Positions 29,155 through 30,721 of a stretch of DNA of 64,000 bases are shown here, piece by piece. The position numbers were made by a program, and so were the translations under genes. The DNA is taken from assembly GCF_058153355.1 (NCBI RefSeq), contig NZ_CM177019.1, one strand, 5' to 3'. The notes under the pieces were generated by a model, which searched no databases, was not told where the DNA came from, and saw only the letters and a program-made list of their open reading frames with translations. The first letter of the stretch is position 1. Every line of letters begins with the position of its first letter.

Positions 29155-29171
29155 ATTGGAAAAATTTTCCA
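29155..29171. promoter_or_regulatory. Perfect palindrome in gcl promoter region, candidate AllR operator
   Basis: TTGGAAAAATTTTCCAA, a 17-bp perfect inverted repeat between allR stop and gcl start. Confidence 0.55.
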
Positions 29172-29189
29172 ACTTTCAAATTTTGTCAA

Positions 29190-29222
29190 AAAAACCCGCT
29201 CCGCAGAGCGGGATGCGACAGA
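29190..29222 (-). terminator. Rho-independent terminator after allR
   Basis: Minus strand cccgctctgcggagcggg hairpin followed by T7. Confidence 0.5.
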
Positions 29223-29224
29223 CA

Positions 29225-30040
29225 CTATGGATGTGCTTTCAGTCCCAACGCCGTGCTGATATCGCGGGCGGTGTCTCTGACCAGCTCACCCTGACTGACA
29301 AAACGATCTTCTGTCAGTCTTGATGAAGGCCCGGAGATGGAGATAGCGGCAACAACGCCACCTACATCATCGTAAATTGCTGAAGCTATGCAATTCAGAC
29401 CTACAACATGCTCTTCTTTATCTACGGTATAGCCCAGTTCACGCGCTTGTTCCAGGTCCTTCAGCAAGGTGGGCATATCCACAAGCGTAGTTGGCGTAAA
29501 CTGCTGCAAACCGGTTTGCAGAATGATGCTCATCAACTCCTCTTCCGCCAGCGGATAAAGCAGCGCTTTGCCCGCACCGGAAGCATGCAGCGGCAGACGA
29601 CTGCCCAGCGGCGCACACATCCTGACCATCGATTTACATTCTAACTGACCAATTAATACTGCTTCATTGCCGTTACGAATCGCGACATTGACCGTTTCGC
29701 CGGAAAGTAACATCAGGCGGCGCATAAATGGCCCAGCGACGGAGAGGACATCGCGGTTATGGATGTACGCCGCACCGACGTTAAAGACACCTAATCCTAT
29801 ATGCCACCAGCCTAACTGACTGTCCTGATAGACAAAATCCGCTGCCTGTAAAACCTTCAGCAAGCGAAAGGTCGTGGAGAGCGGCAAATCCAGATTGAGA
29901 GAAATATCGCTAACCGACGAACTTCCCCCACTTTTTTCCAGATATTGCAGAATCGCAATTCCCCGCTCTAACGCCTGTGCGCCCTTTTGTGCCACAGGCT
30001 CCGCCTGTCCTGGCCTGCCGCGCCGTCTAACTTCCGTCAT
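29225..30040 (-). CDS. allR: IclR-family repressor of allantoin/glyoxylate regulon
   Basis: 271-aa ORF with N-terminal HTH and C-terminal IclR effector domain; synteny. Confidence 0.85.
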
Positions 30041-30117
30041 ACCTACGTTAACTCCGACCTACAAGTGAGCATAAACAATGAACAATTAGTTTATCTTATG
30101 CAAGTCGGTTGCAGGCG

Positions 30118-30600
30118 TCACGCAAAACAGAGTTCCTGTTCAGGAATACTTTCAACATCACAGTTGTCACTGCCGCCGCGATCGATGGTCAGAAAATCGG
30201 TGACGCGCTGCCAGGCGAAAAGTGGGTGATGCCAGACGTTACGATGATAATTCACTCCCTGTTCACCGTTGGTGATAAACGCCCGCAGCGTTGACAGGTC
30301 TGGTTTGTCGTCACCTAACGCCACGACCACCACAAACACTTCACCTTTCATCGGGATAAAGGCCTGAGTGCCCAGCGGATGACGTTCGAGTTCGTGAATG
30401 GTCAGCGGCAGATTCGCCGGTTGCGCGCGGTTAATGCTGATAAGCGTACGGTCTTGCTCAAGAATCTCAACCAGCGCCAAATCGTGGTAACGCTCCACCA
30501 GGCCATTGTTAATATGGAAAAAATCCCGTTGCTGCGTTTCGATTACGTCGCCATAAGCACTAAAGGCTTCCTGACTTAACGGTAATACCTGAAGTTTCAT
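30118..30600 (-). CDS. allA: Ureidoglycolate lyase
   Basis: 160-aa ORF; position divergent from allS. Confidence 0.85.
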
Positions 30601-30704
30601 CTTTTTGTCCTTGTAACATAATTCCGTTCAACCACCGCCGACCGGACAATGTGGTTCAATAACAGGCAATCTAAAACCTTAAGAGAACAACATCAATACA
30701 AAAG

Positions 30705-30721
30705 TTGGAATATTTTTCCAA
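30705..30721. promoter_or_regulatory. Palindrome in allA/allS divergent region, candidate AllR operator
   Basis: TTGGAATATTTTTCCAA, same half-sites as the gcl-promoter palindrome. Confidence 0.55.

Follow-up and report, generated by a model that had tools for sequence, protein, structure and literature searches.

Two palindromes matching the AllR operators of the allantoin regulon in an Escherichia locus

The 64,000-nucleotide stretch of DNA analysed in this work (contig NZ_CM177019.1 of assembly GCF_058153355.1; hereafter, the window) carries an allantoin gene cluster with two palindromes built on the same half-sites, which raises the question of which protein, if any, reads them. The two palindromes are almost certainly operators of AllR, the repressor encoded between them; this reading was reached by comparing sequences, and, for the binding itself and its response to effectors, published work on E. 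coli K-12 was used. It was preferred because the sites are unique in the window, match published AllR sites, accompany the cognate AllR gene, keep their syntenic places, are conserved, and were recovered by an independent weight matrix. AllR operators of this kind are already known, and nothing in the reading is new.

An exact pattern search for TTGGAANNNNNTTCCAA (TTGGAA-N5-TTCCAA) returned two matches in the whole 64-kb window, the sites 1 and 2 of Table 1, against an expectation of 0.01 from dinucleotide-preserving shuffles (none of 100 shuffles gave two or more). The 6-bp half-sites were identical between the two sites, as the original prediction had it, and the difference was confined to the central 5 bp: AAATT in site 1 and TATTT in site 2 on the plus strand (AAATA in site 2 when read on the other strand). 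The original prediction had also described both as perfect palindromes of 17 bp. This was correct for site 1, symmetric at 16 of 16 paired positions, but not for site 2, where a mismatch at arm position 7 lowers the symmetry to 14 of 16 and the 6-bp half-sites alone are perfect. The start coordinate first given for site 1, 29155, was one base too early. When two mismatches were permitted, a single extra match appeared in the 64-kb window (33725-33741; 3.66 expected). It was rejected as a third AllR site, being at chance level and within the ybbP coding region according to the annotation of the homologous locus.

Table 1. Positions of the genes, operators and control signals of the allantoin locus (numbering of the window).
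Feature	Position	Strand	Basis and remarks
gcl, glyoxylate carboligase	27354..29135	-	TIGR01504, 1282.6 bits (cut-off 711)
gcl Shine-Dalgarno, GAGG	29149..29146	-	ATG at 29135
Site 1, putative gcl-promoter AllR operator, TTGGAAAAATTTTCCAA	29156-29172		Exact pattern match; 8-bp arms around one central base
Candidate gcl -35, TTGACA	29184..29189	-	From spacing and conservation; 11 nt upstream of the operator
allR intrinsic terminator	29188..29212	-	Terminator scan; 7-bp G+C-rich stem, then T-run
allR, IclR-family repressor	29225..30040	-	NCBIfam NF007548 equivalog, 617 bits (cut-off 406), full length 1-271
allA, ureidoglycolate lyase	30118..30600	-	NF002948, 364.7 bits (cut-off 275)
Candidate allA -35/-10, TTGATG-17 nt-TAGATT	30668..30696	-	Begins 8 nt beyond the operator, reading towards allA
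Site 2, putative allA/allS AllR operator, TTGGAATATTTTTCCAA (TTGGAAAAATATTCCAA in the allA direction)	30705-30721		Exact pattern match
allS, LysR-type activator	30829..31755	+	NF007501, 640.4 bits (cut-off 372)

The genes around the palindromes were identified by their protein family models (Table 1), and the homologous stretch of E. coli bears the same four names in RefSeq (gcl, allR, allA, allS). The C-terminal effector domain of AllR matched PDB 1TF1 (E = 6.8e-110), and the whole protein was 99.6-100% identical to AllR of Escherichia whittamii Sa2BVA5. The start of gcl was set at the ATG and not at the upstream GTG of the mechanically called reading frame; the resulting N-terminus, MAKMRAVD, was aligned from its first residue onward in every orthologous locus. 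Site 1 lay 20 nt ahead of the gcl ATG, within the 89-bp spacer that separates this codon from the allR stop (29225), and site 2 almost exactly in the centre of the 228-bp divergent region between the ATG codons of allA (30600) and allS (30829), at 104-113 nt from the first and 107-116 nt from the second. One site at the gcl promoter region and one between allA and allS were the places originally predicted. The sites had further been said to bracket allR: the gene does lie between them, but the pair encloses allA plus allR and not allR alone. Almost every complete E. coli genome (5,401 of 5,426) covered the region of the locus, at 95-99% identity. Identity of at least 99% over 29000-31000 was seen in only 14 of the 5,404 matching E. 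coli genomes. It is unlikely that the window represents a typical E. coli; its AllR points to the E. whittamii lineage as the probable source.

Both sites resembled the published AllR sites closely. Table 1 of PMC8222616 (Suvorova and Gelfand 2021) gives the AllR motif, after Rintoul et al. 2002, as KTTGGAAWAWTWTTCCAAC, and this was fitted at 18 of 19 positions by each of the two sites taken with one flanking base per side (A-TTGGAAAAATTTTCCAA-C and G-TTGGAATATTTTTCCAA-A). The 37-nt “AllR recognition site” quoted in PMC13300388 from Rintoul et al. 2002, AAATCTAGTTTTGGAAAAATATTCCAACTTTTGTATT, was present unchanged at 30731..30695 (minus strand), where it encloses site 2, and was exact in K-12 as well. 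The motif fit and the exact recognition sequence thus upheld the assignment of both sites to the allantoin regulon as AllR operators, and none of the published footprints, as they are quoted in these later papers, places AllR elsewhere.

In genes, positions and half-sites, the window agreed with the AllR operators known from E. coli K-12, which PMC13300388 and PMC8222616 cite after Rintoul et al. 2002. The K-12 allS-allA site with its 10-nt flanks was identical to the window over 37 nt, and the K-12 allR-gcl intergenic region differed from the window by two substitutions, neither of them in a half-site. One, the sole operator difference, changed the base at the dyad centre of site 1 (T in the window and A in K-12, in the gcl direction), and cannot affect the symmetry. 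The second, 2 nt from the operator on the downstream side, gives TTAATA in the window and TAAATA in K-12. As in the group of IclR-family regulators with A/T-rich palindromes (IclR, KdgR, AllR and SsgR; PMC8222616), the sites are inverted repeats of a kind presumably read by a dimer through its helix-turn-helix motifs, and the centre of site 1, about 30 nt or less from the start codon of gcl, fell in the zone typical of that survey. Tandem sites 18-22 nt apart are found in more than half of the orthologous groups of the family (PMC8222616); unlike this majority, neither intergenic region of the window held a second site. AllR was highly specific in a ChIP-seq compendium, with one or few strong sites, and in the literature on E. 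coli K-12 its binding is lowered by glyoxylate, allantoin acts as corepressor, and deletion of allR derepresses the regulon.

Conservation was followed in 23 loci retrieved, with AllR as the query, from genomes chosen as representatives of their species. L024, a match of 28% identity in an Erysipelotrichaceae genome, was left out as not being an allR ortholog. The order allS<>allA-allR-gcl was kept (tblastn) in 19 species of 11 other named genera, including Superficieibacter, Citrobacter, Klebsiella, Raoultella, Buttiauxella, Izhakiella, Atlantibacter and Providencia, and in two further Enterobacteriaceae, with AllR identities down to 66% among the syntenic loci. At the syntenic place, a site mismatched at one position at most was present in all 20 loci covering allS-allA and in all 20 covering the gcl region; it lay 56-155 nt beyond the allR match on the gcl side and 657-724 nt before the allR start on the other. 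Across the comparison, the two operators were conserved in 21 loci. Conservation within each intergenic region peaked at the palindrome in MAFFT alignments, which were made from the whole regions and built without using the motif. The half-site positions carried 1.7-2.0 bits of information each and most of the central ones 1.0-1.7 bits; the half-sites were near-invariant, and the central positions, despite their variation, were about 98% A/T across genera. The rare half-site changes were one-sided and non-compensatory (TTTCAA in Izhakiella, TTAGAA in Atlantibacter and ATGGAA in Providencia).

A weight matrix derived from the other genera only, with the window excluded, gave 31.8 bits to site 1 and 31.1 bits to site 2; the runner-up among about 128,000 window positions had 10.6 bits. 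This third-best position, 36879-36897, reads ATTGGTATAATTTTTAAAA and was far under both operators. Neither in the two intergenic regions nor in the allA-allR spacer did the same scan detect a secondary or tandem site, the best remaining intergenic score being below 0 bits.

One of the syntenic loci (L009, CACSKA010000001.1) was titled “Chryseobacterium sp. 18061”. Its allS-allA-allR-gcl cluster is of typical enterobacterial form, has both operators and encodes an AllR 85% identical to that of the window. The core sequences and positions of its sites equalled those of Citrobacter sp. 18056 (L021), and the record is likely to be mislabelled or contaminated.

The palindromes could also be chance products of A/T-rich DNA, or generic promoter features without a dedicated regulator. 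Enterobacterial intergenic DNA is indeed A/T-rich and site 1 partly overlaps what must be the -10 region of gcl, but the probability of this explanation is negligible given the two matches observed against the 0.01 expected, the gap of more than 20 bits down to the next position of the window, and the invariance of the half-sites, which contain G and C, while the flanking A/T-rich DNA diverges. Function as hairpins (stem-loops of the gcl or allS/allA leader RNA, or a cruciform or terminator) instead of protein sites is hardly tenable either. Single-strand stems of 6-9 bp are possible at both sites (-4.4 to -7.1 kcal/mol); these are weak and A/T-rich in comparison with the allR terminator hairpin 25 nt away (29212..29195), which folds at -14.8 kcal/mol. 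Neither site is followed by a T-run, the allR terminator was the only one reported by the terminator scan, and Rfam gave no family match in 27000-34000. The sequence, and not the pairing, is what has been conserved, because the half-site changes in other genera are non-compensatory, and this favours AllR operators over hairpins.

Binding by a protein leaves the choice of the protein. The paralog IclR could bind the sites, also or instead of AllR, coupling the glyoxylate shunt to allantoin catabolism. IclR, whose boxes lie in the aceBAK and iclR promoters, belongs to the same family as AllR and is likewise glyoxylate-responsive; the glyoxylate-binding residues are common to both proteins, and AllR of the window scored 246.9 bits on the IclR equivalog model. 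The IclR box (TGGAAATNATTTCCA; PMC8222616, Table 1) has the TGGAA-N5-TTCCA core and the spacing in common with both sites, and its specified positions were matched at 12 of 14 in site 1 and at 11 of 14 in site 2. The 2-3 positions that differed were in the centre, which is WAWTW in the AllR sites and departs from the ATNAT consensus of the IclR box. The AllR sites, moreover, extend outward by one conserved T/A per side, near-invariant across genera and absent from the IclR box, and they are located in the all cluster beside allR, not in an aceB or iclR promoter. The published binding and genetics also concern AllR: the sites are termed AllR recognition sites, and it is the allR deletion that derepresses the regulon. 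Altogether, binding by IclR is very unlikely. Cross-talk between the paralogs, with IclR occupying these operators under some conditions or AllR occupying IclR boxes, would be conceivable because of the shared TGGAA-N5-TTCCA core and of glyoxylate sensing by both repressors, and is judged quite unlikely on the sequences compared.

The control region of gcl was compact, with the T-run of the allR terminator, the candidate -35 hexamer and the operator all within 57 bp. The terminator hairpin and its T-run were kept across genera with differing stem sequences; the TTG of the candidate -35 hexamer was at a fixed distance from the operator in most genera, and the alignment had no indels from the T-run to the operator. 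The T-run of the terminator merges into the TTGACA of the putative gcl promoter. From the spacing of TTGACA, operator, GAGG and ATG, we infer that the -10 hexamer and the transcription start of gcl lie within the operator or at its edge. Site 1 would consequently cover the -10/start-site part of the promoter, so that bound AllR should exclude RNA polymerase. Although quite unlikely, an influence of bound AllR on termination of allR transcription or on its read-through would also be conceivable from the geometry of these 57 bp.

A consensus promoter scan of 29050-30900 gave no credible promoter; the sole match near gcl was rejected, its -10 overlapping the gcl start codon. The RutR box, whose consensus we take to be TTGACCANNTGGTCAA, was found with up to three mismatches nowhere near gcl (29136-29224), and its five matches in the window were at chance level; this negative is a weak one. 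A RutR binding site upstream of the gcl operon has been reported (PMC10163214). In K-12, the last ~200 nt of allR and its terminator constitute the sRNA AllZ (b4831; PMC8175672). The equivalent stretch was present in the window (29188-29422, minus strand), with the allR terminator as its 3' end.

In the allA/allS region, site 2 appears to sit upstream of the candidate -35 of allA and not over the core promoter. The TTGATG and TAGATT hexamers of this candidate were partly conserved blocks in the unbiased intergenic alignment, and the pair was under the consensus threshold of the promoter scan. No promoter of allS could be placed convincingly relative to the operator in the intergenic sequence. 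Other blocks conserved across genera were observed on the allS side, TGATTTATCAGTATTTTTACAT and TGTGG (30757-30778 and 30735-30739, respectively); they may correspond to the allS promoter or to sites for another regulator.

In the mechanism proposed, each TTGGAA half-site would be read by one helix-turn-helix of the AllR dimer, and the A/T-rich 5-bp centre would act as spacer. AllR at site 1 would repress gcl-hyi-glxR-allW-allB-ybbY-glxK, and the single operator at site 2 would serve both divergent promoters, allA and allS. Through AllS, which activates the allD and allF operons, site 2 may also gate the oxamate branch indirectly. Glyoxylate would release AllR from the DNA and allantoin would strengthen the repression, as published for E. 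coli K-12.

The significance of these results beyond annotation is slight. The allantoin regulon is intact in the window, an Escherichia sequence whose nearest relative is E. whittamii; both textbook AllR operators are present, their half-sites unchanged, and these were the only two strong sites in the 64-kb region. The comparison across genera gives modest added support to the published AllR motif: from Escherichia to Providencia, the half-sites are near-invariant, and the 5-bp centre varies while staying A/T-rich.
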